In this document: one piece after another, positions 350 through 60,375 of the stretch
Numbering within the stretch: position 1 is the stretch's first letter
How the letters are laid out: every line of letters begins with the position of its first letter
Assembly: GCF_004010195.1 (NCBI RefSeq)
Contig: NC_057752.1
Coordinates: forward strand, 665,908 to 729,907
Direction of reading: 5' to 3'
Source: Chiloscyllium plagiosum
Lineage: Eukaryota
Length of the DNA: 64,000 bases
Notes under the pieces: model-generated
Databases searched by the model: none
Told to the model about the DNA's origin: nothing
Seen by the model: the letters and a program-made list of their open reading frames with translations, nothing else
Program-made: the position numbers and the translations under genes

Positions 350-647
350 CAAAGTTTGTGCGAAGATTTGTAGCTCAGGTGCTCGTTGTTGTGGTTCTGT
401 TCGCCGAGCTGGGAAATTGTGTTGCAGACGTTTCGTCCCCTGTCTAGGTGGCATCCTCAGTGCTTGGAAGCCTCCTGTGAAGTGCTTCTGTGATCTTTTC
501 TCTGGCATTTATAACCACTATAAATGCCGGAGAAAAGATCACAGAAGCGCTTCACAGGAGGCTCCCAAGCACTGAGGATGCCACCTAGACAGGGGACGAA
601 ACGTCTGCAACACAATTTCCCAGCTCGGCGAACAGAACCACAACAAC
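350..647. mobile_element. Penelope-like element family A, fold-back insertion (129-bp inverted arms 385-513 / 519-647)
   Basis: Near-perfect inverted repeat with a 5-nt spacer and a 35-nt tail on one side only; degenerate 12-bp TSD ACAGAGGATGGT (338-349) / ACAGAGGGTGAT (646-657); same sequence as the GIY-YIG-bearing copy at 5568. Confidence 0.88.
569..608 (+). ncRNA. Minimal type I hammerhead ribozyme motif (PLE family A); mirror copy on the minus strand in the left arm
   Basis: GCA-CTGAGGA-T-GCCACCT-AGAC-AGGGGAC-GAAAC-GTC-TGC: core CUGANGA/GAAA, GUC triplet, stem I GCA/UGC, palindromic ACGU stem III; stem II imperfect. Confidence 0.75.
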
Positions 648-2157
648 AGAGGGTGATGGCGGAAGGTTGCTTTTCAGACTGGAGGCCTGTGACTGGTGGT
701 GTGCCACAAGGATCAGTGCTGCATCTACTGCTTTTCGGCATTTTTGTAAATGATTTGGATGTGAACATAGAAGGTATAGTTAGTAAGTTTGCAGATGACA
801 CCAAAAGAGGAATAGCAGATGGAGTTTAATTCAGATAAATATGAGGTGCTGCATTTTGGAAAGACTTATACACTTAATGGTAAGGTCCTGGGAGTGTTGC
901 TTGCAAATTCATAGTTCTTTGAAAGTGGAGTCGCAGGTAGATAGGATAGTGAAGAAGGCTTTTGGTATGCTTTCCTTTATTGGTCAGAATATTGAGTATA
1001 GGAGTTGGGAGGTCATGTTGGGGCTGTACAGGACATTGGTTAGGACACTTTTGGAATATTGTGTGCAATTCTGGTCTCCGTCCTACTGGGAGGATGTTGT
1101 GAAACTTGAAAGGGTTCAGAAAAGATTTACAAGGATGTTGCCAAGGTTAGACGGTTTGAGCTATAGGGAGAGATTGAAAAGGCTGGGGCTGTTTTCCCTG
1201 GAGCGTCGGAGGCTGAGGGGTGACCTTATAGAGGTTTATAAAATCATGAGGGATATGGATTGGATAAATAGACAAAGTCTTTTCCCTGGGTTCGGGGAGT
1301 CCAGAACTAGAGCGCATAAAGGTTTAGGGTTAGAGGGGAAAAATTTAAAAGGGACCCGAAGGGCAACTTTTTCACGCAGAGGGTGGTGCGTGTATGGAAT
1401 GAGCTGCCAGAGGACGTGGTGGAGACTAGTACAATGACGACATTTAAAAGGCATCTGGATGGGTATATGAATAGGAAGGGTTTGGAGGGATATGGGCCAA
1501 GTGCTAGCAAATGAGACTAGATTAGATTAGGATATCTGGTTGGCATAGACAAGTTGGACCGAAGAGTCTGTTTCCATGCTGTACATTTCTATGACTCTTT
1601 AGAGTGGATTTGTATTTTTGTTGTATTATGTCACATAATTCTCTAATATTTATTAAAGTATTTAAAATCTGACTATGTGTGGAATCATGTTCTGCACCCA
1701 TTGCCCAAGCTCTGTCACTACTGAACCTCTTGTAAACCTCCTCTTGTCACCACTGCGGTGAGTAGATGAGTGTTCCTGGAAAGTGAGTCCACAATAATGA
1801 AATATGTCTAGTCTTATAATTTTTTTAACAATTGATGAACATCATTATGTAGGCAATAGACCTATCATTCTCAGTCAGAAGATGCAATATCAGAAAGGCC
1901 ATTCAGCCTAATTGATCTATGTTGGTGCTAATGCTCCACACAAACCTCCTTCCACCCTATTTCTTTGAATTCCATCGTCTTATATTTATATTCCTCTTTC
2001 CCTGATGTGGTTACCCAGTTTTCCCTTAAATGCAAATTTAAGTGTTCCAAAAAAGTGTACTTAATATCAAAAATGTGACTGTGTCTACCACCAAAAATGG
2101 AGCTTGACTTTACAAAGTTTTGAAACTCATCCATCACAAAAACAGCCAAGCCAGGTG

Positions 2158-2388
2158 TGAAATAACTCCACAGAGGCTGGTATCCCATCACCAAGTTACC
2201 CATTATTCACACGTGGAGAGTCCTTGACACTGATCCAGCTCTCTCAGAGCCAGCTCTCAGAGGGAACAGGATGTCTGACACTCCTGTTTATATCTGTCAG
2301 CCAGAGCTCCCTGATTGAACCAGGTTTACAGCCCCAGTCAGGGGACTCCTATGAGGTCCACCTGGTTGACCTCTATACAATCACTACG
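2158..2388 (-). mobile_element. Probable solo LTR (Gypsy-like)
   Basis: On the minus strand begins (C/T)GTAGTGA and ends TTTCA, with TATA-like GATATAAAC and a polyA-like signal; flanked by AGGTG/AGATG (5-bp TSD, 1 mismatch). Confidence 0.5.
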
Positions 2389-5099: not shown

Positions 5100-5304
5100 G
5101 GAGAAAGTGAGGTCTGCAGATGCTGGAGATCAGAACTTAAAATGTGTTGCTGGAGAAGTGCAGCAGGTCAGGCAGCATCCAGGGAACAGGAGAATCGACG
5201 TTTCGGGCATAAGCCTGAAGAAGGGCTTATGCCCGAAACGTCGATTCTCCTGTTCCCTGGATGCTGCCTGACCTGCTGCGCTTCTCCAGCAACACATTTT
5301 CAGC
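5100..5304. mobile_element. Penelope-like element family B, fold-back insertion with hammerhead at the symmetry centre
   Basis: Perfect 14-bp TSD TACCTTGCTTGAAT (5086-5099 / 5305-5318); inverted arms; CTGAAGA-A-GGGC-TTAT-GCCC-GAAAC-GTC at 5215-5242. Confidence 0.88.
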
Positions 5305-5567
5305 TACCTTGCTTGAATATAAAGCCTGAATCTGCTCCATTCTCAGTGGAGCTTAAATTCAAATCCCACTGCCCTCCTTATTCTCCCACTAAAGTTGGAA
5401 AGCTTTTTGTATGGGACCTTCTGCAACATCTGCTTTAATTTGCAAAAGATAAGTTAGTCACAATTGCAAGAAATATTAAAATACAGAAACTGTAGAAACA
5501 TAGAAAACAGAAGCAGGAGGGTGTCCATTCGGCCCTTTGAGCCTGCTCGGTTATGCAATATGATCAT

Positions 5568-6096
5568 CAAAGTTTGTGAGAAGATTTGTAGCTCGGGTGC
5601 TCGTTGCTGTGGTTCTGTTCGCCGAGCTGGAAGTTTTTGTTGCAAACGTTTCGTCCCCTGTCTAGGTGACATCCTCAGTGCTTGGGAGCCTCATGTGAAG
5701 CGCTTCTGTGGTATTTCTTCCGGCATTTATATTGGCCTGTCCCTGCCGCTTCCGGTTATCAGTTTCAGCTGTCCGCTGTAGTGGCCGGTATATTGGGTCC
5801 AGGTCGATGTGTTTGTTGATGGAGTTTGTGGATGAATGCCATGCTTCTAGGAATTCCCTGGCTGTTCTTTGTTTGGCTTGCCCTATAATGGTAGTGTTGT
5901 CCCAGTCAAATTCATGTTGCCACTACAGCGGACAGCTGAAACTGACAACCGGAAGCGGCAGGGACAGGCTACTATAAATGCCGGAGGAAACACCACAGAA
6001 GCGCTTCACAGGAGGCTCCCAAGCACTGAGGATGTCACCTAGACAGGGGACGAAACGTTTGCAACAAAAACTTCCAGCTCGGCGAACAGAACCACA
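5568..6096 (-). mobile_element. Penelope-like element family A, 5'-truncated with inverted terminal copy; retains GIY-YIG endonuclease C-terminus
   Basis: Perfect 13-bp TSD GCAATATGATCAT (5555-5567 / 6097-6109); 182-bp arms 5604-5785 / 5919-6100; minus-strand translation from about 5919 gives QHEFDWDNTTIIGQAKQRTAREFLEAWHSSTNSINKHIDLDPIYRPL; hammerhead motif at 6023-6063. Confidence 0.92.
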
Positions 6097-6739
6097 GCAA
6101 TATGATCATGGCTAACCATTCAATTCTAACTACTGTTCTTCAAATAGTGTTGTGGTTTATTCCACACGAAGCAAGCGTAGTCCTTAGGTTTGTTTCTCAT
6201 TCTTTGGAGGTGAGCACAGCAAAATCCTTCCCATTTATTTTAAAATAAAACTTATGAGGCCATTTTGTTATGTCAGTATGCAAAAAACAGGGCCTTGTTA
6301 TTCATATGTGTAGCTTCCAATTCACACCTGACTGACAATGCTAAATTGGTTGTCAGTGTAATACATCACACACTTGGGATTATCTAGCAAATGCTGTCCA
6401 ATTTCAGGATCTAATATTCAACACTGTAAAATGACATGAGAAGTGTGGGCTAGTTGACAACTCAGTAACTTAAAGTTGCAAGCAGCCAAAGAGATATGCT
6501 GTTTGATATGATCCAATCTCAACAGTATTCTGTAATGAAAAATTCCAGTTTCACAACCCTTTGAGAGAAGAAATTCCTCCACATGCCTGTCTTAAATGTG
6601 GTTATTCTGAGATTGTACCCCCTAATTGTAGGGAAATTGCCTTTTACATTTCCCCTGTCACGTCAACCACGAATCTTGGATGCTTCAGTAAACTCACCTT
6701 TCATTTTTCTAAAATCCAATGACTACAAAGTTCAATTTT

Positions 6740-6820
6740 GAGAGTGTGATGCTGGAAAAACACAGCCAGTCAGGCATCATCCGAGCAGCAGGAGAATCGA
6801 TGTTTTGGACAGAAACTTCA
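6740..6820 (-). mobile_element. Degenerate PLE family B arm
   Basis: TGCTGGAAAAACACAGCCAGTCAGGCATCATCCGAGCAGCAGGAGAATCGATGTTTTGG resembles the family B arms. Confidence 0.65.
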
Positions 6821-10133: not shown

Positions 10134-10290
10134 AATCTGATGAAGCGCTTTTGCCTGAAATGTGAATTTTCCTGCTCCTCGGATACTGCCTGACCTGCTG
10201 TGCTTTTCCAGCACCACTCTAATCGTGAGTCTCAGCATGTTTTGCTTTATATCAGCCCAAAGCATCTGGAAATCCACCATCCAGAGTCTC
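10134..10290 (+). mobile_element. PLE family B-related solo arm with decayed hammerhead
   Basis: CTGATGAAGCGCTTTTGCCTGAAATGT followed by CTGCCTGACCTGCTGTGCTTTTCCAGCACC. Confidence 0.65.
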
Positions 10291-10315
10291 TGAACCAAGA
10301 GGAGGATCTTAAATG

Positions 10316-10490
10316 TTTCCTCCCACAGTCCAAAGATGTGCAGGTAAGGTGAATTGGCCATGCTAAATTGCCCATAGTGTTAGGTAAGGGGTAAATGTAG
10401 GGGTATGGGTGGGTTGCGCTTCGGCGAGGCAGTGTGGACTTGTTGGGCCGAAGGGCCTGTTTCCACACTGTAAGTAATCTAAATCTATCT
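10316..10490 (+). mobile_element. HE1-type SINE, 5'-truncated
   Basis: Near-identical to the 3' half of the full copy at 63351-63648. Confidence 0.85.
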
Positions 10491-10897
10491 AAAAAATGTG
10501 GGATACAGGTTCCCATATATGTTGCATACCCAACTGAGCAGTCAGAAACAAGCTGTGCCCCAATCACACTGTTGTGCCATAGGGTATCAGGATCTAACTT
10601 ATGTACACAGTTCTCCTTGTGCCAAATTTCCAATTATTGGCTGTGCCAGGATAGTGAGAAGTTAAATATGGAACAAATCTGTCACAGCAGGAGGTGCCCA
10701 AACATCTTGCCACTTGGTCCTACACCAAGGAGTTCAGCCGCTGCATTAAACGCTGCCTCAGACATGGCTGAATGTGTAGCATTCTCACCTCTGAGTCAAA
10801 AGTCATGGATCAAGTTCCACTCCAGAGATTTGAGCACAGCATCCAGGCTGTCATTCCAGTGCAATACTGAGGGAATGTTGGATTATAACACAATCAG

Positions 10898-11112
10898 AGC
10901 TGAAAATATGTTGCTGGAAAAGCGCAGCAGGTCAGGCAGCATCCAGGGAACAGGAGGATCGACGTTTCGGGCATAAGCCCTTCTTTCCTGAAGAAGGGCT
11001 TATGCCCGAAACGTCGATTCTCCTGTTCCCTGGATGCTGCCTGACCTGCTGCGCTTTTCCAGCAACACATTTTCAGCTCTGATCTCCAGCATCTGCAGAC
11101 CTCACTTTCTCC
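10898..11112. mobile_element. Penelope-like element family B, fold-back insertion with intact hammerhead core
   Basis: Perfect 15-bp TSD TTATAACACAATCAG (10883-10897 / 11113-11127); CTGAAGAAGGGCTTATGCCCGAAACGTC at 10988-11015. Confidence 0.9.
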
Positions 11113-11204: not shown

Positions 11205-12653
11205 ATGTTATTATGGGAAGTGAGGGAAGAGATTGCCACGCCTTTGGCGATGATCTTTGCATCCTCACTGTCCACTAGAGTAGTACCAGATGATTGGAGG
11301 ATGGCAAATGTTATTCCCTTGTTCAAGAAAGTGAATAGGGATAACCCTTGGAATTCTAGACCAGTCAGTCTTATGTTGTTGGTGGGCAACTTATTGGAGT
11401 GGATTCTGAGAGACTGGAATTATGATTATTTGGAAAAGCATAGTTTGATTAGAGATAGTCAGCATGGCTTTGTGAGGGGCAGATCATGCCTCACAAGCCT
11501 TATTGAATTCTTTGAGGATGTGACAAAACACATTGATGAAGGTAGAGCAGTGGATGTGGTGTACATGGATTTTAGTAAGGCATTTGATAAGGTTCCCCAT
11601 GGTAGGCTCATTCAGAAAGTAAAAAGGGATGGGATACAGGGAAATCTGGCTATCTGGATACAGAATTGGCTGGCCCATAGAAGACAAAGGGTGCTAGTAG
11701 ATGGAAAGTATTCACCCTGGAACTTGGTGACCAGTGGTGTTTCGCAGGGATCTGATCTGGGACCTCTGCTCTTTGTGACTTTTACAAATAACTTGAATGA
11801 GGAATTGGAAGGGTGGGTTAGTAAGTTTGCTGATGCAGAGCTGGGCTGATAAGTGGCAGGTGGAGTTCAACCTGGAAAAGTGTGAAGTGATTCATTTTGG
11901 AATGTCAAATTTGAATGCAGAATTCAGGGTTAAAGGCAGGATTCTTGGCAGTGTGGGGGAACAGAGGGATCTTGGGGGTCCACATCCATAGATCCCTCAA
12001 AGTTGCTACTCAAGTTGATAGGGTTGTTAAGAAGGCGCATGGTGTGTTGGCTTTCATTAGCAGGGGGATTGAGTTTAAGAGCCGTGGGGTTATGCTGCAG
12101 CTCGATAGAGCCCTGGTTAGACCACATTATTCAGTTCTGGGCACCTCATTACAGGAAGGATATGGAAGCTTTAGAGAGGGTGCAGAGGAGATTTACCAGG
12201 ATGCTGCTTGGACTGGGAGGGCAGGTCTTATGAAGAGAGGTTGAGTGAGTTAGGGCTTTTCTCATTGGAATGAAGAAGAATGAGAGATGACTTGATAGAG
12301 GTGTACAAGATGATGAGAGGCATAGATAGAATGGATAGACAGAGACTTTTTTCCAGGGCGGAAATGGCTATCACGAGGGTGCATAATTTTAAGGTGATTG
12401 GAGGAAGGTTTAGGGGAGATGTCAGAGGTAGGTTCTTTACACAGAGAGTGGTGGGTGCATGGAATGCATTCCCAGCAGTGGTAGTAGACCAGATACATTA
12501 GGGATATTTTAGGGACTCTTGGATAGGCACATGGATGATAGTAAAATGAAGGGTATGTAGGTTAGTTTGATCTTAGAGTAGGATAAAAGGTTGGCACAAC
12601 ATCGAGGGCCGAAGGGCCTGTACTGTCCTGTACTGTTCTATGATTTATGTTCT
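11205..12653 (+). mobile_element. CR1/HER1-type LINE, 5'-truncated RT with an internal deletion after FAD
   Basis: VPDDWRMANVIPLFKK, SQHGFVRGRSCLT, VDVVYMDFSKAFDKVPH, GVSQGSDLGP; TGTTCTA tail. Confidence 0.93.
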
Positions 12654-14627: not shown

Positions 14628-15427
14628 TGGAGTGCCACAAGGATTGGTGCTAGGTCCTCTACCTTTTGTCATTTACATAAATGATTTGGATTTGAGCATA
14701 AGAGGTACAGTTAGTATGTTTGCAGATGACACCAAAATTGGAGGTGTAGTGTACAGCGAAGAAGGTTACCTCAGATTACAACAGGATCTTGACCAGATGG
14801 GCCAATGGGCTGAGAAGTGGCAGATGGAGTTTAATTCAGATAAATGTGAGGTGCTGCATTTTGGAAAAGCAAATCTTAGCTAGACTTATACACTTAATGG
14901 TAAGGTCCGAGGGAGTGTTGCTGAACAAAGAGACCTTGGAGTGCAGGTTCATAGCTCCTTGAAAGTGGAGTCACAGGTAGATAGGATAGTGAAGAAGGNN
15001 NNNNNNNNNNNNNNNNNNNNNNNNNNNNNNNNNNNNNNNNNNNNNNNNNNNNNNNNNNNNNNNNNNNNNNNNNNNNNNNNNNNNNNNNNNNNNNNNNNNN
15101 NNGTCTTTTCCCTGGGGTGGGGGAGTCCAGAACTACAGGGCATAGGTTTAGGGTGAGAGGGGAAAGATATAAAAGAGACCTAAGGGGTAACGTTTTCACA
15201 CAGCGGGTGGTATGGGTATGGAATGAGCTGCCAGAGGATGTGGTGGAGGCTGGTACAATTGCAACATTTAAGAGGCATTTGGATGGGTATATGAATAGGA
15301 AGGGTTTGGAGGCAGATGGGCCGGGTGCTGGCAGGTGGGACTAGATTGGGTTGGGACATCTGGTCGGCGTGGACAGGTTGGACCGAAGGGTCTGTTTCCA
15401 TGCTGTACATCTTTATGACTCTATGAC
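14628..15427 (+). mobile_element. CR1/HER1-type LINE 3' portion spanning an assembly gap
   Basis: [38 protein letters not shown] tail. Confidence 0.92.
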
Positions 15428-15559: not shown

Positions 15560-15640
15560 AAGGGCTTATGCCCGAAACGTCGATTCTCCTGTTCCCTGGA
15601 TGCTGCCTGACCTACTGCGCTGTTCCAGCAACACATTTTC
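15560..15640 (+). mobile_element. PLE family B solo arm (hammerhead lacking its CUGANGA half)
   Basis: 13-bp TSD AGAACCTTCAATT (15547-15559 / 15641-15653). Confidence 0.82.
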
Positions 15641-16989: not shown

Positions 16990-17282
16990 CAAATGCTTTG
17001 TCCCTTTACCACAACAATTACCATTTCTTTTGTCTTATGTTCCATGACATTTTTGTCATTTAAGCTCTCTGACCTTCCCTTTTGTTCTTCCTTCTCCCAA
17101 CCCCTGCTTAAGTTTTGACTGCACCTTCTTCATCCCATTTCTGGATTCCAGTTCTGAAGAGAAATCCTATTCAAATCAAACCTTAACTGTTTCTGTCTCC
17201 ACAGATGCTGCCAGACCGGCTGAATATTTCAGTACTTTCTGTTTTTCTGAACTCCAGCATCTGTACTGTTTTGCTTTTATTA
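16990..17282 (+). mobile_element. PLE family D 3' end, old
   Basis: Pyrimidine-rich 3'UTR, then TTCTGAAGAG..AAACCTTAACTG..CCACAGATGCTGCCAGACC..CTCCAGCATCTG shared with 34630 and 54563. Confidence 0.55.
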
Positions 17283-17394
17283 TATTCTGTATTGGGGAGG
17301 TTTAGAATGGCAATGACCAATGACCTTAGTCATTGCTATAAGCGATAAAATAGATAGAGTGTGCAGCTGAGGGATGGATCAGGTAACAGTATCT

Positions 17395-17491
17395 GATTCC
17401 TGATGAAGGGCTTTTGCCCGAAACATCGATTTTTTTTTAGCTCCTCGAATGCTGCCTGACCTGCTATACTTTTCCAGTGCCACTCTAATCT
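17395..17491 (+). mobile_element. PLE family B solo arm with hammerhead motif (stem III CpG-decayed)
   Basis: 11-bp TSD TAACAGTATCT (17384-17394 / 17492-17502); CTGATGAAGGGCTTTTGCCCGAAACATC. Confidence 0.8.
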
Positions 17492-18954: not shown

Positions 18955-19196
18955 GTAACTTGCATTTATATAACTCCTTGCATGCAGTAAAATATCCTAA
19001 TGTGTTTTATTGGGTTCTTATCAAGCAAAATTTGACACAGAGACACATAAGGGGACATTATGACAGGTAATTAAAAGCTTGGTTGAAGAGGCAAGTCTTG
19101 AGGAGCATCTTCAAGGAGGACAGCAAGGTGAAGAGGTTCAGAGCAGAAATTCCAGAGCTTAAGATTCACACAGCTGAAGGAATCACTGCTGATGGT
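18955..19196 (-). mobile_element. L2 LINE 3' fragment (resumes at about 21556 after a nested insertion)
   Basis: Minus-strand tail TATATAAATGCAAGTT shared with the DeuSINE; GATGGT duplicated at 19191-19196 and 21556-21561. Confidence 0.6.
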
Positions 19197-19199
19197 AGT

Positions 19200-22264: not shown

Positions 22265-22358
22265 AAAATCAGGAATAGCTGGAGAAACTCTTCAGGTTGA
22301 CAGCATCTGTGGAGAGAAAGCAGAGTTAACATTTCAGATCCTGTAACCCTTCTTCAGG
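22265..22358 (-). mobile_element. PLE family D solo arm
   Basis: Minus strand CCTGAAGAAGGGTTACAGGATCTGAAATGTTAACTCTGCTTTCTCTCCACAGATGCTG. Confidence 0.65.
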
Positions 22359-26092: not shown

Positions 26093-26096
26093 CCGA

Positions 26097-27980: not shown

Positions 27981-27981
27981 A

Positions 27982-41743: not shown

Positions 41744-41902
41744 AAAATAAAACAAAGAGTTACGGATACTGGAGATCTGAAACAAAAGTAGAACAGGACT
41801 GTTCTAACGCAAGGTCACTGGACTCGAAATGTTAACTCTGTTTTTCTCTCTATAGATTCTGCCAAACCTGCTGAGTTTCTCCAGCAGTTTCTGTTTTTGT
41901 TC
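41744..41902. mobile_element. PLE family D partially collapsed fold-back
   Basis: TSD CAGTTGTGCT/CAGCTGTGCT (41734-41743 / 41903-41912); antisense tail followed by the sense arm AAGGTCACTGGACTCGAAATGTTAACTCTG. Confidence 0.68.
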
Positions 41903-42769: not shown

Positions 42770-44138
42770 AAAGGATAGACCAGATCTAAAAATTGAAGTT
42801 CTAAATTGGAGGAAGGCCAATTTTGACGGTATTAGGCAAGAACTTTCAAAAGCTGACTGGGCGCAGATATTCGCAGGTAAAGGGATGGCTGGAAAATGGG
42901 AAGCCTTCAGAAATGAGATAATGAGAGTCCAGAATGTATATTCCTGTTAGGGTGAAAGAAAAGGCTGGTAAGTATCGGGAATGCTGGATGACTAAAGAAA
43001 TTGAGGTTTTGGTTAAGAAAAAGAAGAAAGCGTATGTCAGGTACAGACAGGATAGATCGAGTGAATCCTTAGAAGAGGAGAAAGGCAGTAGGAGTATACT
43101 TAAGAGAGAAATCAGGAGGGCAAAAAGGGGACATGAGATAGCTTTGGCAAATAGAATTAAGGAGAATCCAAAGGGTTTTTACAAATACGTTACGGACAAA
43201 AGGATAATTCGGGAGAGAATAGTGCCCCTCTAAGATCAGCAAGGTAGCCTTTGTGTGGAGCCGCAGGAGATGGGACAGATACTAAATGAGTACTTTGCAT
43301 CAGTATTTACTGTGGAAAAGGACATGGAAGATATAGAATGTAGGGAAATAGATGGTGATATCTTGCAAGATGTCCATATTACAGAGGAGGAAGTTCTGGA
43401 TGTCTTGAAACGGGTAAAAGTGGATAAATCCTCAGGCTCTATGACTCTACGACTCTATGACCTGATCAGGTGTACCCCAGAACTCTGTGGGAAGCTAGGG
43501 AAGTGATTGCTGGGCCTCTTACTGAGATATTTGTATCATCGATAGTCACAGGTGAGGTGCCGGAAGACTGGAGGTTGGCTAATGTGGTGCCACTGTTTAA
43601 GAAAGGTGGTAAGGACAAACCAGGGAACTATAAACCAGTGAGCCTGATGTCGGTGGTGGGCAATTTGTTGGAGGGAATCCTGAGGGACAGGATGTACATG
43701 TATTTGGAAAGGCAAGGACTAATTAGGGATAGTCAGCATGGCTTTATGCATGGGAACTCATGTCTCACAAACTTGAGGAAGTAACAAAGAGGATTGATGA
43801 GGGCAGAGCGGTAGATGTGATCTATATGGACTTCAGTAAGGCCTTCAACAAAGTTCCCCATAGGAGACTGGTGAGCAAGGAATACATGGAGAACTAGCCA
43901 TTTGGATACAGAAAGGTAGAAAACAGAGGGTGGTGGTGGAGGGTTGTTTTTCAGACTGGAGATCTGTGGAGTGCCACAAGGATCGGTGCTGAGTCCACTA
44001 CTTTTCATCATTTATATAAATGATTTGGACGTGAGCATAAGAGGTATAGTTAGTAAGTTTGCTGATGACACCAAAATTGGAGGTGTAGTGGACAGCGAAG
44101 AAGGTAACCTCAGACTACAACGGGATCTTGATCAGATG
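42770..44138 (+). mobile_element. CR1/HER1-type LINE internal fragment (post-EN linker and RT)
   Basis: [52 protein letters not shown]. Confidence 0.93.
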
Positions 44139-44164
44139 GTACTTGTTCACAAATACATGTTGGC

Positions 44165-44640
44165 TACTGCACCAGGAAAAACTCCCCAGCTATAATTTGA
44201 ATGATGCTGTAGGATCTATTATATCCACCTTAGAAGGCAGAACCAACCTTACTTTTAATAACTGTTCAGCGCACAGCACTGTCTCAGTACAGCACTGGAA
44301 GAGTCAAAAAGGGTGGTGTTGGAAAAGCACAGCAGGTCAGGCAGCATCCAGGAAGCAGGAGAGTTGATGTTTTGTGCACAAGCCCTTCATGAATTTCCTG
44401 CTGACATTCCTGATGAAGGGCTTATGCCCTGAATGTTGACTGTCCTGTTCCTTGGACGCTACCTGACCTGCTGTACTTTTCCAACGCTACACTTTCCGAC
44501 TCTGATTCTCAAGTATCTGCGGTCCTCACTTTCTCCACAGCACTGGAAGATTCAGCCTGGACTGCAAGTTTCTTGACGAGGGATTGAATTTATGACCTTC
44601 TGACTTAGAAGTATATGTGTTATCCACTGAGCCACAGCTG
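44165..44640 (-). mobile_element. DeuSINE relic interrupted by PLE family B
   Basis: Minus-strand head GTGGCTCAGTGGATAACAC..TCATAAATTCAATCC; homology to the copy at 10765. Confidence 0.55.
44303..44536. mobile_element. PLE family B fold-back insertion, older
   Basis: 14-bp TSD ACAGCACTGGAAGA (44289-44302 / 44537-44550); CTGATGAAGGGCTTATGCCC at 44410. Confidence 0.85.
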
Positions 44641-46320
44641 CTACTGAATATAATAAAATCAGAAATATGCTGACACAGGGCTGACAATGTCCAACTCCTT
44701 CCATACTGCAACAAAGTCTCAGCCTAAGGTATAAATGAAAACCCTAATGTATAGCTCAAATTTCTAACCATCTGACTCAGGCAAGAAGCTATGAGTGAAT
44801 TTCAGTCAGGACAGTGTGTGGGATGAGGGTTACACTTGGGGATTACAATTGAATTTGACCCACCTGTCATAAGGGAGGCAATGATTGAAGTAGAATTTAT
44901 TAACAAGTCGTACTTGCCCAACCTTGCAGTAGCTTTGACCCCTCTTCCTTTAACCTCACTGTTCATCTTTAGAATTTGCTTTTTGAGCTACCAGCAGGAA
45001 TGTACTGTATTCCTTGTGCAATATATGGGAACAATCTGATATAATCTAAGAAAAGTGATGCATAAATTCATGATTATGTTTCACTTTTGTAAAAAAATAC
45101 AATTTAGCATATTTAGTATTTCTTCAGGATAATTTATATAGTATGATGATGTTGCATTCTCAAAAGCTCTTACGCAGCCCTGTTTGTGGCTCTTAGAGGT
45201 TGACTCACTGTGAATTGTATCAGTTAGCATAGATTGCATGACTTGAAAACAAAAATTTACTGCAATTCAGCCCAATTGGATACAACCCACATTGAAGAGC
45301 GAGAGAAGATTGAGGCTGTCAACAAAAGTGGAGAGGGAGGAGGGGATGAATATGAGGCTGCCAATAGTAGCATTGATAAGAACAATAACAATGCCAGTTG
45401 GCTGCTGAGTTGATAATTGCCCCTACCTGACTTGTTGGGAGTAAACTGTAGAAATACAGGCGCAAGAAGTATTTTCATAATTGTGTGAGAATCTTGTGAG
45501 AACGTGGCAGATCACCTCTATCAGACATAGGAGAACCAGGAAAACAGATTGGACCATCTTGAACTACTGGTGAAGACAGAAGTGGATTTGGCTGCAATTC
45601 CCTTTGTAGTTGAATTGTCTGCCTGCACCTGCAGTCCATATTCAAATGTGAAGTTTTGAAATCTTTCCCTGAAATTGGCCTGCTAGACGGAAGTAGAATT
45701 CTGTCTTTGCCTTTTGACAGCAAAGGCCTTTGGGACTGATGTAACTTGAAAGCATTCTATTGCGCCAGTTCAAGACTGCCAAAATATTATTCATAATGGA
45801 CAGCTGGTTTTGTTTGCTGAGGCTAGAGTATGAATCCCAATCCCAATGCACTGATCCAATGCCTGATTGCAAGAACTCCCAGGCTGAAATGTCATTAGTT
45901 TTAAATTCACTATCAGAATTCAAAAAGTGTGATTTGCTTTCAGATTTCTCGAGTCCTGCTGGCTTTTCCATATGTCAATGCACTAATGTAACATGAAGTA
46001 CAGATTTAATATACAGATCTAAACCAATCTTCAGCATTTTATTGCATTTAAAGATGGCACTTTTTATTTAATTGCTTACAAGTCAAGAGTTGAACAAAGT
46101 GGTCTTGGACTATTTCTTATTTTGGCTGGGTGCCAAATTTTGTGTGATCGTGCTCTTGTGAATAAGTTTGAGTACTTTTCTTGTTAAAAGCACTGTACAT
46201 TTGTAAGTTTGTTGTGACTTTGTAATGCAGAGATGCACAACCCTTGATTCTTTGTACAAGAATTGATGAATATATAGATGAGGCACTTGCTCTTTGTCTC
46301 CTTCATGCTTAATTTGTGCA

Positions 46321-47604
46321 TGATGTGGAGGAGCCGGTGTTGGACTGGGGTGGACAAAGTTACAAATCACACAACACCAGGTTATAGTCCAACAGGTTTA
46401 ATTGGAAGTACTGGCTTTTGGAGCACAGCTCCTTCTTCAGGTGGTTGTGTGGCAGGATCATAAGACACAGAATTTATAGCAAAAGATTACAGTATCATGC
46501 AAGTGAAATGATATATTTAACAAACAGCAAATAAATATATCATTTTATTTACATGGTACTGTAATCCTTTGCTATAAATTCTGTGTCTTATGGTCATAGA
46601 GCCATAGAATCAGAGAGATGTACAGCACGGAAACAGACTCTTCAGTCCAACTTGTCCATGTCGACCAGATATTCTAACCCAATCTAGTCCCACCTGCCAG
46701 CACCCGGCCCATATCCCTCCAAACCCTTCCTATTCATATACCCATCCAGATGCCTTTTAAATATTGCAATTGTATTAGCCTCCACCACTTCCTCTAGCAG
46801 CTCATTCCATACACGTACCACCCTCTGTGTGAAAACGTTGCCCCTTAGGTCTCTTTTATATCTTTCCCCTCTCACCTTAAACCTATGCCCTCTAGTTCTG
46901 GACTCCCCTACCTCAGGGAAAAGACCTTGTCTATTTATCCTATCCATGCCCTTCATGAATTTATAAACCTCTATAAGGTCACCCCTCAGCCTCTGCCGCT
47001 CCAGGGAAAACAGTCCTAGCCTATTCAACCTCTCCGTACAGCTCAAACCCTCCAACCCTGGCAACATCCTTGTAAATCTTTTCTGAACCCTTTCAAGTTT
47101 CATAACATCTTTCCGATAGGAAGGAGACCAGAATTGCACGCAATATTCCAACAGTGGCCTAACCAATGTCCTGTACAGCCACAACATGACCTCCCAACTC
47201 CTGTACTCAATACTCTGATCAATAAAGGAAAGCATACCAAACGCCTTCTTCACTATCCTATCTACCTGCGACTCCACTTTCAAGGAGCTATGAACCTGCA
47301 CTCCAAGGTCTCTTTGTTCAGCAACACTCCCTCGGACCTTACCATTAAGAGTATAAGTCCTGCTCTGATTTGCTTTCCCAAAATGCAGCACCTCGCATTT
47401 ATCTAAATTAAACTTCCATCTACCATTTCTCAGCCCATTGGCCCGTCTGATCAAGATCCCATTGTAACCTGAGGTAACCCTCTTCACTGTCCACTACACC
47501 TCCAATTCCTGCTACACAACCATCTGAAAAGGAATGGTGCTCCGAAAGCTAGTGCTTCCAAAATAAATCTGTTGGACTATAACCTGGTGTTGTGTGATTT
47601 GTAA
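46321..47604. mobile_element. PLE family C fold-back whose right arm is interrupted by a CR1
   Basis: 13-bp TSD CTTAATTTGTGCA (46308-46320 / 47605-47617); left arm about 46358-46497; right arm about 46555-46592 plus 47507-47606. Confidence 0.85.
46593..47506 (-). mobile_element. CR1/HER1-type LINE 3' portion, well preserved
   Basis: Open frame FNLDKCEVLHFG...LEYCVQFWSP...GYGPGAGRWD*. Confidence 0.94.
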
Positions 47605-49020: not shown

Positions 49021-50713
49021 TGCGTTAGTATACACAAAGCACACAATCAACAGAGTTTGTGCACATGTTTATTAATGAATGCTGTTAGATGTATCTTGGT
49101 TTATGGAAGTGGAATTTTCCTTTGTATTAGAATAATTAACGTAGTGGACATGAATCACCTTGGTCTCCCAGCAAGGTGCTGTGGTTATCCTGAAAAAATC
49201 CTCCCGATTAAGGTGTCTTTTTCATATTGCCTGCACTCCAATTGCCACTTCATTATGTGGGAAGTGCCATATGCCAGATAACAGCAAAATACTGCAGATG
49301 CTGGACACCTGAAATAAAACAGAAAATGCTGGAAATGTCATTTGACAAATGCCAATCACAAATAACAAATCAGTAAGTCTGCCCACATGAATTAAAGTAG
49401 TGGGGTCAGGCCAACTTGTGAAAGTAACCCATGTATTTTGAATATTACCAACACTGTAGTGTTAACTAATTCGATTTCTCCTGCTGCTCTCTCTATTTGT
49501 TGCACGATTTGGAAAACATTCACTCTCAGTACAGGGTCTCTTGCGTCAAACAGGGGTCCAGGATGTTCCAGCCAATAGACTGCACCATGACAACAGTGAA
49601 TGCTGTTCTATGATTGGCCAACTAGTGATGTTGTTTAAGATACAGTTGCTCAGCTGCATCTCAGTGTCTGATGCTGTGAATGCCTGATTTTTGTGTGTCT
49701 GTTTTTGTCTACTGTGCATAAGTTAGGAGGATAGGTTGCAGTAGTGCTATGCCATGGGCAATAGACGTACTATTAATGACAGATTACCAATGTAAAAGAC
49801 CTGAACTCCAGATTTATACTCATGTCCAACTTCTTACAGTTCCCAATGTGTTAAAAGGTTTAGAACATCTTCTCTGATAACTGCCATCAACGCAAAGTGA
49901 ATCAGAGACAGGAACAACAGTATTTAACATGGTGGTGAAAGGTCACAGGCCTGAAAGATCAACTCTGTTTCTCTCTATGTATAGATGATGCCTGGTCTGC
50001 TGAGTTCTTCTCCTTCCAACACCACCACCTCCCCCCGCCCCTCCCCCAACCACCACCCCATTCCCACCCCGGCCGTGGCATTTAGTAAGTCACCAGCTTG
50101 CTGTCAAGCACTTTAGTGCACAGCATGAACCAAAGAGGCAAGAGGGAACAATTCAGAGCTTTAGGATTCAGGACATTTGTTCTGAGAATCTGAATCTGAT
50201 CTGAAGCCTTGATTTGTGAATCCCAAGACCAGACTGATTTCAGACAGTATCATTCCAAAGTACAAATGCTCATCCGCCTGATCCTTCAGAATATAGGAAC
50301 AAGATGGAATTATGCCCACTACTGTGTCCTCATGCAAAGACTGCTGAATATCCATTTCCTGTTTCCTGGATATATTGCTCAAACTTACCCAGCCACACAT
50401 TGTAACTGCTCACCTGAAATCAGAATACTGTGTTTTCCAATGCATCTGAGTGGAATAAAAGGAATGCTAGCTTGTTCAATGCCAACAGTATTCAATTAGC
50501 CCTCTAATTCATTATCTTTGAGGCTTTGTTCCTGTTCTGCCAGAGACACCACGCACACACTTTGTAAAAGAAACATTCTGACCAACCTTTCTCTCTCCCT
50601 GCCCTCCCCCACCCACGATTTCCTTCTGGAATATAAAGAACTTCTGAATCTCTTGCTCGTGACCCTTGTATCCTGGAACTGCCAGATCATCATGTTGTGT
50701 GCACTTATCCTTA

Positions 50714-51502
50714 ATGTGATTTGGGGTTGCCGGTTTTGGACCGGGGTGTACAAAATTACAAATCCCACAACACCAGGTTATAGTTCAACAGGTTTATTTG
50801 GAAGCACTAGCTTTTGGAGCACTGCTCCTTCATCAGGTGTTTGTGGAGTATAAGATTGTACAACATAGAATTTATAGCAAAAGTTTACAGTGTGATGCAA
50901 CTGAAATTATGTCTTGAAAAATACCCGGATTGTTTGTTAAGTCTCTCATGGTTTTGAATGACCATGTTGGTTTCAGTTCTTTCATATGTAAATCCCAGAA
51001 TGTTTTTTAAAGTTACACTCTCAAGTGAACTTTAACCATAGGTGCCATGTCAGCTCAGATAATGCATTGAAGTTGTGAAGTGCCCTGTGTGAGGCTGTCT
51101 GTGTCCCAGTGTTCAGACTGGTTCTATTTCTAATAAAGGGATTTACAGGATCTTATATGGATTCATGCAGTTTTTGAGCAAAATAAAATGTAATTGATCA
51201 AGTACAAATTCACCCCACAAACTGATATGTGTNNNNNNNNNNNNNNNNNNNNNNNNNNNNNNNNNNNNNNNNNNNNNGGGGAGATGAGTGTCTGTGAGAG
51301 TGTGTGTGTATATGTATGTATGTGAGTGTAAAGGGATATAAGGAGAGGCTGTGTGCTTGAGTGTGAGTGTGGATGTGTATCAGTGAGCGTATGAGAGAGA
51401 GCTTGTGTATGAGAGAGGGTCTGTGTGTGTGTTTAGTGCAGTAGGGTCAGCTATAGTGTAACATGAACCGAAGGTCCCGGTTGAGACCATCCCCATAGGT
51501 AC
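50714..51502 (-). mobile_element. PLE family C 3' end with the last codons of GIY-YIG
   Basis: Homologous to the 19200 and 32208 copies; minus-strand TYGDGLNRDLRFMLHYS* at 51447-51500. Confidence 0.87.
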
Positions 51503-52487
51503 ACAGCACTGATCCTTGTGGCACACCACTGATCACAGGCCTCCAGTCTGAAATGCAATCCTCCACCACCACCCTCTGTCTTCTACCTTTGAGCCAGTTC
51601 TGTATCCAAATGGCTAGTTTTCCCTGTATTTCATGAGATCTAACCTTGCTAACCAGTCTCCCATGAGAAACCTTGTTGAACGCCTTACTGAAGTCCATAT
51701 AGATCACATCTACCACTCTGCCCTCAATAATCCTCTTTGTTTACTTCTTCAAAAAACTCAATCAAGTTCGTGAGACATGATTTCCCACGCACAAAGCCAT
51801 GCTGACTATCTCTAATCAGTCCTTGTCTTACCAAATACATGTAAATCCTATCCCTGAGGATGCCCTCCAAGAATGGGTGGCACGGTGGCTCAGTGGTTAG
51901 CACTGCTGCCTCACACCGCCAGTGACCCGGGTTTGATTCCAGCCTTGCGCGACTGTCTGTGTGGAGTTTGCACATTCTCCCCGTGTTTGCATGGGTTTCC
52001 TTCGGGTGCTTCGGTTTCTTCCCACAATTCAAAGATGTGCAGGTTTGGTGAATTGGCCATGCTAACATTGCCCATAGTGTTCAGGGATGTGTGGGTTAGG
52101 TGCATTAGTTAGGGTAAATGTAGAGTGTAATGGGAATGGGTCTGGGTGGTTTATACTTCGGAGGGTCACTGTGGACTTGTTGGGCCGAATGGCCTGTTTC
52201 CATACTGTAGGGATTCTATATTTTAAAAAAAAACCTGCCCACCACCGGTGTCAGGCTTACTGGTACATAGTTCCCTGGCTTTTCCTTACCAACTTTCTTA
52301 AATAGTGGCACCACGTTAGCCAACCTCCAGTCTTCTGGCACCTCACCTGTGACTATCGATGATACAAATATCTCAGCAAGGGCCCCAGCAATCACTTCCG
52401 TAGCTTCCCACAGAGTTCTCAAGTACACTTGATCAGGTCCTTGGGATTTATCCACTTTTATGCATTTCAAGACATCCAAGACTCCTC
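51503..52487 (-). mobile_element. CR1 LINE RT fragment interrupted by HE1 SINE
   Basis: [62 protein letters not shown]. Confidence 0.92.
51875..52219 (+). mobile_element. HE1-type SINE, full length
   Basis: GGGTGGCACGGTGGCTCAGTGG A-box; GGTTTGATTCC B-box; 3' GGGCCGAATGGCCTGTTTCC. Confidence 0.88.
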
Positions 52488-53899: not shown

Positions 53900-54562
53900 T
53901 TTTTTGAGTCCAGTTAAGGTCATAGAGACACTATTAATATATTCATAAAATGGAATTCGTGCAGGGGAGGACTACAAGGGTGATTATGAGGAAAGAGATC
54001 AGCGCTCAGAAAATCCTCCAGTAATAATTTTGTGTGGGTCCTCCGGCACTGACCAAACTGAAATTTGCTAGCACAGTGGAAGAGAGGGCACCTCATTTAC
54101 AAGGGCCAGGTGGCATAAACGCTACTTGGGGCACATCTTGGGCTCTCACCTGGCTATGACTATTGGAAAACCCTGGTGCTTGTCCTGGGGAGTAGGGATT
54201 GTCCAGGTGGCACGCCCTCATATTCACAAATGGTCCTTTAAGCCCCCAAAAGAGGAAGCTGGTTTGTACCATTTTAAAAACAGTAGTTTGAAAATTCATT
54301 GAGGGTGGAATGGGGTGGTCTGGAGCCTATCTATGTCTCTGAGCCAGCTGGTTATGCTGTGACTTAGTTACTTGGTGTAATGTTCACCACTATCACACTA
54401 GACCCAACTGGAACCTGAGGTTGGAGTGGATAGTCTGAGTTTGGGAGAACTCATCCCTGAGCATCATTTACCTTTCAAGGGGTGGACAGAAATTCTGTCC
54501 TCACTGCTCATAGTAGAAAGTCCAGCCAGTCAGGAACCAATTAGGTTCCTTGGGAATTTGAT

Positions 54563-54695
54563 TCTGATGCAAGGTCACTGACCTGAAATGTTAACTGTGT
54601 TTCTATTTCCGCAGATGCTGCCAGACCAGCTGAGTATTTACACCATGTTCTGTTTTTACTTTAGATTTCCAGCATCTACAGTATTTTGATTTTTT
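54563..54695 (+). mobile_element. PLE family D solo arm with tail, decayed hammerhead
   Basis: CTGATGCAAGGTCACTGACCTGAAATGTTAACTG..CAGATGCTGCCAGACC..ATTTCCAGCATCT. Confidence 0.68.
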
Positions 54696-56258
54696 TTTAA
54701 CCCTGGTTCCTCTTGCTGGCATTCCATTGGATGCAGTAGGAGATATGCCGAACTCTGATGGAATTTATTTTTGGCTTAACACAGAAAGGAGCCATCCGAG
54801 AGATGATTATATAGAGTTATGCAAGATAGTTAGTAATATAATAAAAGGTTAATCTGAAATAGTACTTAAAATGAAATTGTGGGAAGAAGATTGAGGATGC
54901 AAGTAGAAACTGCTAATAGCCAAATTTAAAACTGACATCAGGAAATTCTTCTTCACTCAGGAGAGTGTTCAGCACTTGAAAATGAGTGTATCTGTCGAAT
55001 GGTCAGAAGTGAACATCTAACCTCCAGTGTGATACATTTTTATTTTAAGAGTGTGTTTAACTATTTATTTCAGTCTGTACCAGAAATTTGGATTATGTAC
55101 TGGCTGCTGTCATGTGACATTAAGCTGACTTTTTAAAAAAATGTTTAATCCACTGGCCACTACTTTATTTTATTTTTATTTGGTGCATTGCAGACACCAC
55201 CTCTTTTCATGTTTGAGACATATGCAGCCAATTGACTTGTTAGATTTGATGTTGAAGATGTTGAATTCCTGTCTACTGTGTGATTTACTTAAATTGTTAT
55301 TGAGATTGACAGTTGTAGTCTTCCCATGATTTTAGGAGGTTTTGTCTCATGCTGTCTTCTCACTGTCTCTCCTGCCAATCAACATGGTATCCACCCATTT
55401 TCTGACTGAAATTCTGAGTGTGTTTTTTTGTTGTAAATTGTAGCTCACACAAACAGCTTGCTGGCTCTCTTCCCTTTAATGTGAGATGTCATCCTGCATC
55501 CATGTTGCTTCATCCGCAGTAATTGCCTTACTGACAAATGAGGGATGGATTTCTACACAAACTATTAACACTGAGCAACCTATCACCCCACTCATCCTCT
55601 CTATACGGTAGTTGATAGTTCTACCACTTTTAAATAATGATCAAATTCCTAATGTAGGTGTATTAATGAAGGAGTGGCTGAAGTGGGAGGAGGTAACCAT
55701 TAAACATAAGGCATTGTTTCCTTGGAGCTGAAAGGGGATGGGAATTCCAGTCCACATTTTCCAGAAGACCCCCACTGAGCTTTTCAGGTCTGAATCAATG
55801 TGAATTCTCAATGTATACTCTGGTGTCTTCATTATCTCATCAAGCTGTTTGATCCAAGAAGTGTTGAAAGGATTTCAGTGGTTACCTCCTCAGAATTGGG
55901 GCTTGCTTCATCTTATTTTCAGCCTTGAAATGTTTTTGTATAATTTTCTCCCCCTGTTCAGTATATCCTCCACTTGTTTTTGGCACCTGATATGCAAATA
56001 GGAATATGTCCGGAAACCTTGGAAAGAGAGCTGCAGCTGTGGTAAGGGAAGGGTGGGGGGGTGTCTGTATTGTGTAATGAGGATGCTTCATGCCTCGGAT
56101 GATCTCTATTCTGCAGCGCAAAGCATGCATCCTTTTGTATTACATTGTGGAATCTAAGAAGCCTAACACACAGAGAATTGTTGTCCGGATGGGTGGTCTG
56201 TGATGGGAAGGGGCCATGAGCCTTTCAGAGCCCCGTGCTACCTTCGTACTCTGAACCC

Positions 56259-57576: not shown

Positions 57577-59067
57577 GTAAGCACAAAATTAGCTCAACTT
57601 ACTCTTTTTAAATCAGTTTACTGATGTTTGTCCTGGGCTACAAAGACATTTATCTGCTTTTTTTTGAAGGAAAAAATATCCCCAATCCAATTTTCTTGCC
57701 TCACATACTGAAAATGCTGAATCCTAATGGGCCATTCTGGGTTCCCTTGCATACTTCAGCTAGATGACCATTCTACATGCATTGGTCTCGACACTCCGAG
57801 TCGCATTAATCTTCAGAGGCATCACAGATAAACCTGGTATTGTCCTCAATCACCATGTGCTAGTGAGAGCACACTTCCTAGCTGGAGTCTCTGGATAGCA
57901 GTTAAGAAAGAAGACCCTAGTTATAGAGACTGTCTCTATGTTACACAGCTAATATTGTTTTCCCTCTTCCACTCCCATCCTCGGGGTACTGACTGGGATC
58001 ATCAACTAACTTGATGCTGCCAGGGATTAAACTGGCACTTTACAAAGAAGTAATATTTAATCAGCCATCAATGGGATTTAGTGTCACCCTACCTGCTCTA
58101 TCTGAAATTGGCTCCAATCCGAAACAATATGGTTGACTTTTAATGCCCCCAGGGCTCTTAAGGAAAGGGAATAAATGCTGTTTTATAAGATTTGCCCACC
58201 AAAAAAAATGCTGTTAACCTCAGAATTGAGTCGTTTCTCTTAGAAGATAAAAGATTAAGGATTGATTTAATAGCAGTGTTTAGTTTTATGAAGGATGGAA
58301 CAGAATATTTAAGACATGCTGTCTCCAACAATTGACAAGCTGCAAATAAGAAGGCATTGGTGTAAGATCATGAGATTTAGGACAGAGAGCAAGAGAATTG
58401 TTTTTTCACACAGGGTTACAAAGCTGTGGAATGCACTGCTGGAGTTTAGTGATTAAAACAAAAATCATATTAAGATACAAGAATTATTGAAGAATAAAAA
58501 GGATAACAGGAAATGGGAGTGGAGTGCAGACATCAGATAAGGATTACAGATTATGTGGACTTTAAACACCAGCATGGACTGGTTGGGGCAAAAGGCCAGT
58601 TACCATTTCCACATCATTGTGTAAACAATAGCCTTTTTTTGATGGGATTGGAGTATGTCAATCTTCCAGTCTGTTATGCCAGAGGCCCATGTACTGTGTT
58701 CTTGACCTAAGCCATGAATTTGGAGTGGGTGTCAAGAACAAGGCACTTTGCAAGAGCAAACTTTTGTGCAGCCTTTTTCTCCTCAAATAGAATTGGAATC
58801 AGCAGAGGGCTGGAAGCAGGTTGGCTGTCCCTCTCTCTCCTAAAGGGTGGGTGAGTTGGGAACAGAATGTGTTAAATGGAACAGTTGTGTAGCTCATCAA
58901 AAGAAGGATAAATATTACAATGGGATACTTCTAGCAGTGCCTACATTGTGTTTGGCTGTATGGAGAAAGAGAAAAACTGGACTAAATGGAAGAAGCACGT
59001 CTCAGTCTGATGGACTTTTCTTGTTCTGGATAGTAAGAATACAGACTGTGCTGCAAAGAGATTGAGT

Positions 59068-60375
59068 AAAGGAAGAACTTCCATTTATTTACTGTCTTTT
59101 ATGATCTTTGGACATCCCAAAGCACTTTACAGCCAATGAAGTATGTTTGAATTGTAGTCACCATTGTCGAAACGTAGAAAATGTAGAAAAATCAAATAGT
59201 TGTTATGCAATTCAGAACTTTGAGTATTCTTGAAAACAATTTGTCAACGCTTTTCACCTTGCACTCATCAGGACAATTCACACAAAATACCAATGTAAAA
59301 GAAAAATAACATTTAGCTGTATGAGAGGAGAGAGCTGATTGGTGGTTGACAAGGGAGCTCTGATTGAAAGAGGCATTGCTAGGGTAACATTCTGACTGAT
59401 GATGACTGACAGTTAACTGCTAAACTTTGTTTAAATTTTAAACCAGGCAGATTGACTCTGATTGGTCAAGGCATTGCCCTGGAAAATGAACCAGAGAAAG
59501 TCTTTCACCTAGTTTGTTACATTGCAATAGGCGACTGTATATAAATGTCCTTTCTATCTGCAAAAAACAAGTCTGTAATCATTAATTTACATAGCTTCCA
59601 GTACACGAATGTGCATCACACTGCAAGCCTGACAGTCTATCCTAAATTGATGGTCAGCCCAATTCTGTGAGTGCTCAACATTACTTTGCAAATGTCAGTC
59701 ATGGAATCAGATCAACGTTGGACACTTCTGAGTTTTGCAAGCACAGGCTGCTTGGGTATGGTCAGTGTCTTGCTTACTGTGAATTCTAAAAGGATATACT
59801 GTTTAATATTATCCAATCTTTAGGATGCTTGGCATAGACACCTATCATCACACAGAGCCTTGAAATTCATATACTGTATTATTCATTGTCTGACAGATAA
59901 GACTGGCAGTCATCATCCAACTGGTGCATTCTTCATGGCAATACCTCTGATAATCAGAGTCCTCTTGCGAACCAATCTGTTCTTCTTTCATATTGTATAA
60001 ATGTTGTTCTCCATTTACATTGGTATTTCTTGTGAATTGTCCTGGTGGGTGCAAATGGGTGTATATTTTTAGCAATATCCAAATGTAAGAAATGCGCCAG
60101 CTACAAACACTAGTGAGATCATGACCAAATAATATGTTGTTGTGTGTAATATTGACTGAGGGATGAACATTAGCTAGGTCACTAGGGAAACTCTTCCCTG
60201 GGATCTTTTATGTCCAATTGAACGGGCACATAGGGCTTTGGTTTAGCATCTCATCTGAAACATGGCATTGGTGATGATGTAGAAAACCTTCAGTCCTGCA
60301 CTGGAGTATCAGATTGAAATGGAAATTATGAGCTTCAGTCTGGAGTGAAATGTGAACCCAAACTTGATGTCTGTG
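59068..60375 (-). mobile_element. DeuSINE split by PLE family E (pieces 59068-59185 and 60080-60375)
   Basis: CCCAAAGCACTTTACAGCCAATGAAGTA tail; GGGATCTTTTATGTCCA..GGTTTAGCATCTCATCTGAAA Deu domain. Confidence 0.65.
59190..60080 (-). mobile_element. Penelope-like element family E, old, with inverted terminal copy
   Basis: Arms about 59257-59314 / 59997-60056; minus-strand hammerhead relic TGTC-CTGATGA-GTGCAAGGT-GAAA-AGCGTT-GACA at 59242-59275; decayed HIRVLEA...FCR.K.H GIY-YIG C-terminal motif at about 59540-59620. Confidence 0.68.

Follow-up and report, generated by a model that had tools for sequence, protein, structure and literature searches.

Metazoan Penelope-like elements (PLEs) carry minimal hammerhead ribozymes, described as sharing a core, an extra nucleotide and a palindromic stem III (Cervera and de la Pena 2014, PMC4209133). 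Insertions of endonuclease-bearing (EN+) PLEs are reported to comprise a pseudo-long terminal repeat (pLTR), an inverted 5'-truncated copy, a tail of 30-40 bp and a target-site duplication (TSD) (PMC8557442, PMC3846280, PMC2377424). For Poseidon_Ac of the green anole, two 3' ends map to two internal starts of reverse transcription, templates are numbered to -145 upstream of the open reading frame (ORF), and hammerhead cleavage proved unnecessary in vitro (Frangieh et al. 2024, PMC11167929); what PLEs use their hammerheads for is described as still open (PMC8557442). Animal non-LTR retrozymes, related to pLTRs, are reported as tandem arrays of two or more hammerhead units (PMC7229834; bioRxiv 10.64898/2026.07.22.740005). 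Here we analysed 64,000 nucleotides of a shark chromosome (Chiloscyllium plagiosum, NC_057752.1, 665,908 to 729,907; the whole stretch is called the window), in which hammerhead-bearing PLE insertions recur as five repeat families, A to E.

The PLE origin, the minimal type I hammerheads and the inverted insertions proposed in a first-pass annotation of this DNA are supported and agree with the published descriptions (PMC4209133, PMC8557442). The insertions match the canonical EN+ architecture in their inverted arms, one-sided tails of 32-37 nt and TSDs of 11-15 nt, but they are miniature, and the 5' edges of B and D cluster at the hammerhead core. Compared with the known PLE hammerheads, the window differs in host group, in its shorter stems and in a density of one insertion per 2.7 kb. 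Family A resembles Poseidon_Ac in an AUG at the start of stem II, in two 3' ends and in an apparently uncleaved template, whereas its upstream endonuclease frame continues into the hammerhead and ends in loop II, with no untranslated gap in between. Families B and D resemble retrozymes in being short, non-coding, hammerhead-bearing and pLTR-related, but they occur as monomers or inverted pairs. PLE minimal hammerheads are already known as a class, to which the window adds shark families. A literature search, with Repbase and Dfam outside its scope, returned no paper on shark PLE hammerheads, on a stop/start overlap inside a PLE hammerhead or on 5' edges clustering at the hammerhead core.

We consider it probable, at roughly three in four, that the window holds dead-on-arrival insertions of EN+ PLE ends, with A of Poseidon type, C of Neptune type, B and D together, and E as an old relic. 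The element protein would nick DNA and prime cDNA synthesis at either of two sites within the RNA, located some 75-135 nt 3' of the hammerhead core, producing 3' ends that differ by the tail of 32-37 nt. Copying would be incomplete and often accompanied by a second copy in inverted orientation, with the target duplication of 11-15 nt left by repair. The template RNA would not have undergone ribozyme cleavage. The hammerhead of a parent element would need either a partner, dimerizing through an ACGU or AGCU palindrome, or the element protein; in inserted copies it is mostly decayed or predicted to be buried in a fold-back duplex. We infer this priming mechanism by analogy with Poseidon_Ac (PMC11167929), and the hammerheads of the window copies are probably inert.

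Hammerhead motifs and insertion anatomy

The core pattern CUGANGA..GAAA, scanned over the whole window, gave 22 matches, 16 of them inside the five repeat sets. The scan bore out the cores annotated at first pass at 572, 6026, 5215, 10988, 30712, 33131 and 34630, and moved that of family E from 59242 to a start at 59271 on the minus strand. Strict and relaxed descriptors of minimal hammerheads were compared with 200 dinucleotide shuffles. The strict descriptor found six sites (shuffle mean 0.01, maximum 1), two in family A (5678, minus; 6026, plus), one in B (10988, plus) and three in C (19314 and 32295, minus; 33131, plus), and none in D or E. The relaxed descriptor found 13 sites, one of them outside any family (shuffle mean 0.77, maximum 4). 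The hammerhead motifs are genuine; most copies are decayed and six sites look intact. Stem I has 2-5 bp and stem II 3-6 bp; the 12 relaxed-descriptor sites that belong to a family all have a one-nucleotide insertion between positions 9 and 10.1, and the palindrome at 15.2-16.2 is CG in A and B and GC in C. In families B, C and D, an additional A separates the core from stem II; it is missing from the motif strings first given for B and D and corresponds to the extra nucleotide described as typical of PLE minimal hammerheads (PMC4209133). Relaxed-pattern matches outside the repeat families, at 55893 (minus) and 33865 (minus), were treated as chance. An Rfam scan of the window gave no hammerhead match; its sole matches, to microRNAs, fell below threshold and stemmed from the fold-backs, for which microRNA precursors were rejected as an explanation.

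Self-comparison and inspection gave 23 insertions (A 2, B 8, C 5, D 7, E 1), or one per 2.7 kb, close to the roughly 20, one per 3 kb, first estimated. With intervals set by hand, PLE ends account for some 7.1 kb of sequence, about 11% of called bases. The many fold-back palindromes of the earlier description are likewise borne out, as ten of the 23 insertions have inverted arms (A 2/2, B 4/8, C 3/5, D 0/7, E 1/1). The insertions and their main features are as follows.

349-647, family A fold-back: cores 460 (minus) and 572 (plus), each with a single broken pair in stem II; 36-nt tail confined to the minus arm; nested in a LINE (long interspersed nuclear element) fragment
5567-6100, family A (Poseidon-type by sequence) fold-back: intact cores 5678 (minus) and 6026 (plus); minus arm with a 37-nt tail; flanking duplication of 13 nt
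5662-5922, minus: family A C-terminus of a GIY-YIG endonuclease
6032-6042, plus: family A AUG (6032-6034) and endonuclease-frame stop (6040-6042), inside the hammerhead
5100-5304, family B fold-back: core 5215 (plus), stem I missing its 5' strand; 14-nt TSD
6739-6814, minus: family B relic, core lost
10134-10224, plus: family B copy, decayed core 10137
10898-11112, family B fold-back: intact core 10988 (plus); tail on the plus arm; 15-nt TSD
15560-15640, plus: family B copy beginning 6 nt inside the core; 13-nt TSD
17395-17491, plus: family B copy, core 17400; 11-nt TSD; an extra G between the TSD and the A at -4
30661-30836, family B fold-back: cores 30705 (minus) and 30712 (plus), both arms from -4; 15-nt TSD
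44303-44536, family B fold-back, decayed: core 44410 (plus); TSD of at least 14 nt
19195-20171, minus: family C copy, intact core 19314; long 3' untranslated region (UTR) split by a SINE-like (short interspersed nuclear element) insert at about 19515-19825
27978-28710, family C compound insertion: two minus-strand ends arranged as a partial tandem, cores damaged; also a short fold-back at about 28272-28381
32208-33250, family C (Neptune-type by sequence) fold-back: intact cores 32295 (minus) and 33131 (plus); 32-nt tail on the plus arm; 12-nt TSD
32782-33006, minus: family C C-terminus of a GIY-YIG endonuclease
46315-47604, family C fold-back: split by a LINE fragment at about 46594-47507; 13-nt TSD; cores damaged
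50717-51490, minus: family C copy, 3' UTR reaching the last ORF codons; damaged core near 50835; spans a gap of N
17150-17284, plus: family D relic with tail
22263-22360, minus: family D copy, decayed core 22357
34630-34727, plus: best-preserved family D copy, non-palindromic stem III ACAU; 12-nt TSD
41800-41901, plus: family D relic
49285-49336, minus: family D tail-only relic
49930-50013, plus: family D relic
54561-54699, plus: family D relic with tail, core 54564
59230-60054, family E relic: core 59271 (minus), 5-bp stem I; inverted arms 59259-59379 and 59938-60054, 75% alike

This anatomy, with its tails and TSDs, is read directly from the window. Families A to D each show two classes of 3' end separated by the tail, at 74-75 and 111 nt from the core in A, 89-91 and 124-126 in B, 87 and 119 in C, and 97 and 129-134 in D. 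Both B ends recur, at 30797 and 30835, in public contigs aligned to the B fold-back 30661-30836 (three runs with 45,376, 31,222 and 5,162 contigs; 81,760 in total). TSD scores of at least 11 were obtained at ten of the 23 insertions (6/8 in B, 1/7 in D), compared with 0.2% of 1,920 random pairs. In a few public contigs, the 34-nt B tail is tandemly duplicated (joint 30835 to 30802), resembling the 34-bp repeat that Drosophila Penelope is described as carrying in one or two copies (PMC2377424). The long 3' ends of family C (19195-19200, 27978, 46315 and 50717, minus strand) lie at or near an ATG, possibly the start of the next ORF, and the C, B and D tails contain pyrimidine-rich stretches ending in CAG that resemble 3' splice sites.

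The fold-backs form at insertion, because their centres differ from copy to copy; on the strength of these copy-specific centres and the TSDs, an assembly artefact was rejected. When seven fold-backs were folded in silico, the arms with intact cores were predicted to pair into a long duplex, with the core fully or almost fully paired, and five of the six strict sites sit in fold-backs. The idea that fold-backs serve as ready-made hammerhead dimers was rejected, since the two hammerheads lie on opposite strands and each partner is antisense, so that a fold-back cannot supply a dimer. Nesting provides relative ages: the LINE fragment 46594-47507 and the SINE-like repeat 19515-19825 each split a family C insertion, and the A copy at 349-647 interrupts a LINE fragment (254-349 with 645-1598).

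Lineages and protein-coding links

The five families had been called unrelated. Families B and D, however, align end to end along their whole length, and after removal of the first 40 nt, four of six B-D pairs still outscore all 300 shuffles; the two that fail both involve the decayed D copy with its core at 22357. No other pair of families exceeds the shuffles, the nearest being the B copy with its core at 30712 against C, whose score was reached by 6 of 300. By alignment, B and D are one lineage, which leaves four lineages (A, B with D, C, and E) instead of five. The B and D lineage resembles EN+ PLEs in its tail, carried by both families, its TSDs and its inverted copies. The claim that each family has its own palindromic stem III stands for C (AGCU) but not for A and B, which share ACGU, nor for E, where the word is damaged and AAGCUU-like. 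The D copies have ACAU or AUGU, with no palindrome and no self-pairing in any copy now; both words would be products of CpG decay of ACGU, which D may once have shared.

The GIY-YIG links annotated for A, C and E hold for A and C, where they were observed directly. The family A fragment (5662-5922, minus) has 91% identity to the reverse transcriptase (RT) and endonuclease protein P0019, which itself gives an RT match with an E-value of 3e-6; its relatives P0031 and P0034 have Pfam GIY-YIG matches, and P0019 and P0031 lack a linker zinc finger. The family C fragment (32782-33006, minus) matches an endonuclease profile (E-value 2e-15) and is 94% identical to P0001 and 78% to P0003, both of which carry the linker. 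The closest named proteins to both fragments, at 91-94%, are from Chiloscyllium punctatum. Neptune is described as having a C-terminal GIY-YIG domain with a CX2-5CxxC linker and CCHH, and Penelope and Poseidon as lacking the linker (PMC8557442). The linker in the Neptune-type relatives is CxxxxCxxC and is absent from the Poseidon-type relatives, which suggests that family A is of Poseidon type and family C of Neptune type, although the linker is common to Neptune and Nematis and these assignments are based on protein identity and linker. Pfam gave no match on four window fragments. A protein-cluster look-up matched the C fragment to eukaryotic clusters (0.95) and to one cluster with GIY-YIG in 15% of its members (0.90), which we take as a lead only, and a Neptune-type protein searched against viral contigs had no confirmed match. 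Several annotated shark host isoforms (PPP1R12A-like, XRCC5, NT5DC1, MAP3K7, CUEDC2 and WBP2-like; among P0002, P0007, P0021, P0025, P0026, P0028 and P0030) carry PLE endonuclease pieces, C-terminal in the five sequences inspected, which could be either exonized PLEs or annotation artefacts.

In family A, stem II opens with an AUG, 28 nt upstream of the cut site, compared with 26 nt in Poseidon_Ac (PMC11167929). The endonuclease frame reads across the core as far as a stop codon in loop II, 8 nt beyond this AUG; on the minus arm, the stop and AUG overlap at 5662-5672. Among 16 homologues, known as protein only and representing 2-3 families, seven end in a matching peptide (P0019, P0021-P0024, P0026 and P0030), two read through it (P0020 and P0032) and seven end otherwise. 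The overlap of stop and AUG could couple translation restart to ribozyme folding; we rejected it as a proven function, given that the comparison covers protein ends from 2-3 independent families.

Origin and 5' edge of families B and D

We judge it likely from sequence continuity that B and D derive from longer autonomous PLEs. The public contigs that leave B at 30708 (402, 322 and 80 in the three runs) share a C-rich consensus ending in AGCCTC, whereas random flanks give an AT-only consensus; contigs that leave the B tail at 30835 begin with CTA(G/A)TT. The folds also differ between B and D in a paired manner: both-side changes, which fall in stems I and II, occupy 14 cells compared with 7.3 in shuffles (1/500), and stem covariation is 0.318 compared with at most 0.134 for slid controls, although this covariation is mostly a B-versus-D difference among related sequences and the shuffle count is not a probability. 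Within B, the public contigs vary mostly by CpG decay (C>T at 13-16 places and G>A at 4-10 places per run) and in loop II, including a loop-only subfamily variant, A30726T, at about 30% of depth. No RNA data set was listed as containing B, and about 6% of one single-cell RNA run gave 0 B reads, a sample that does not amount to a test. The both-side stem changes and the loop-only variants suggest that the parents of B and D kept their fold under selection, while the inserted copies decay at CpG.

Like the limit on the covariation, several observations weigh against deriving these insertions from EN+ PLEs. Within family C, stem II has no both-side change, and the hammerheads are predicted from motif and fold. 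The consensus at the B loose ends has an agreement of 0.34-0.38, is 30 nt long, reaches no ORF and yields no copy fraction; continuation data from public contigs cover family B. None of the ten non-palindromic B and D copies share sequence upstream, as a dedicated short element would also predict, and six of the seven D copies lack a clear TSD. Comparison with 184 proteins and profile searches found no PLE coding sequence adjoining any B or D copy in the window, as first noted, and searches of viral contigs, metagenomes and prokaryote genomes found no B or D with flanking ORFs. A 21-nt tail pattern gave 22 metagenome matches, none of which could be extended; they were attributed to chance. The annotated coding link of family E was not detected by Pfam, protein comparison, or candidate and profile searches with Neptune- and Poseidon-type profiles; a frameshift-tolerant search, with profiles lacking Nematis-type proteins, reached 5.0 bits at best, compared with up to 7.3 in controls. 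The middle part of E may be a decayed endonuclease gene, a candidate based on likeness by eye to the motifs of such endonucleases.

Some of these points would be expected if B and D were instead dedicated non-autonomous elements, SINE-like monomers of 90-135 nt with their own sources, mobilized by PLE protein in trans. Their length is uniform and short, no coding sequence adjoins them in the window, upstream extension is seen in 0/15 insertions compared with 8/8 of A, C and E (copies within a family not being independent), and B is very abundant, with 45,376 public contigs in one run. There are also precedents, as Chlamys MRC1 is reported as a non-autonomous PLE partner (PMC8557442) and pLTRs as able to act in trans (PMC3846280). 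We nevertheless regard a dedicated element as distinctly improbable, for B continues into shared sequence on both sides in public contigs and the fold-back centres are copy-specific; moreover, by analogy with Poseidon_Ac (PMC11167929), a monomer ending at the priming site would need template beyond it, which an isolated stub lacks. The first-pass annotation had suggested that B and D are retrozyme-like, which in full would mean non-LTR retrozymes whose tandem units are excised by paired hammerheads and then circularized. A type I hammerhead without an ORF fits this suggestion, as does the derivation of retrozymes from pLTRs, with a report from one chondrichthyan (bioRxiv 10.64898/2026.07.22.740005). 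However, tandem arrays, the form reported for animal retrozymes, occur in none of the 15 window insertions, the units begin at the 5' edge of the core instead of being permuted around the cut site, and the hammerhead is the minimal PLE type without a stem III loop. Head-to-tail B joints are rare in the public contigs, at least 6 of 45,376, 25 of 31,222 and 4 of 5,162 (at least 35 of 81,760 overall), although these are lower bounds, as contigs collapse repeats and may under-count arrays. A retrozyme origin of B and D is therefore very unlikely.

With descent from autonomous PLEs preferred, the sharp 5' edge of B and D calls for an explanation. In the 14 B and D insertions extending as far as the core, all 18 arms begin at positions from about -5 to +10 relative to the first C of the core, and none at the cut site (the 15th insertion is tail only; D edges were mostly judged without a TSD), whereas all eight A, C and E insertions extend at least 53 nt upstream. 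Edges at the core, with none at the cut site, fit the copying of uncleaved RNA that starts there, and we infer that such a start of the template best explains the edge. The motif TCATTCC spans the edge in loose ends and window copies. Promoter initiators have the consensus YYANWYY, which TCATTCC fits with +1 at -4, at a background of 1.2% per position. The extra G between TSD and element in the B copy at 17395 would fit a cap-templated G (n=1). Penelope transcripts are reported to start within the upstream pLTR (PMC2377424), and together with the edge position and internal priming this suggests that the B and D stubs, instead of being randomly truncated, are full-length cDNAs of the 5' leader of the mRNA made by the parent PLE, with transcription starting 4 nt upstream of the core. 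With priming 90-135 nt downstream, most retrotransposition events would then copy this leader and nothing more. We put this forward tentatively, at somewhat less than even odds, jointly with the possible coupling of translation restart to folding by the Poseidon stop/AUG overlap. If true, the stubs would document in vivo, across the genome, both the site at which PLE transcription begins and internal priming on RNA that the ribozyme has not cleaved; in any case, the contrast between the sharp edges of B and D and the read-through of A, C and E bears on the start of PLE RNA and on whether cleaved molecules are ever copied.

The same edge could arise, in stubs equally derived from autonomous PLEs, if reverse transcription stalled or switched template at the hammerhead helices. 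It coincides with the 5' strand of stem I, and four of the 18 arms begin a few nucleotides inside the core. A stalling enzyme should, however, halt on the 3' side of a helix, and A, C and E have the same kind of fold, yet all eight insertions read through; we therefore hold a stall to be rather unlikely, though less so than a dedicated short element. A role for the host, in which the hammerheads are kept in order to cleave host transcripts, is scarcely credible. Six sites look intact, but five of them lie in fold-backs with the core predicted to be paired, intactness tracks the youth of the insertion, and variation across the B contigs is dominated by CpG decay.

Other repeats in the window

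LINE fragments of one abundant group, which we take to be CR1-like, lie at 645-1598, 11214-12652, 14628-15427, 20317-21557, 25197-26093, 29806-30311, 37611-38265, 43387-44139, 46594-47507 and 51493-52487. SINE-like repeats are present at about 10315-10496, 51873-52230, 60473-60798 and 63350-63649, the last within a small tandem array (63307-63761) of four copies of a unit of about 39 nt. Outside families A to E, a near-identical direct repeat of 70 nt occurs at 39899-39968 and 41533-41602, 1.6 kb apart.

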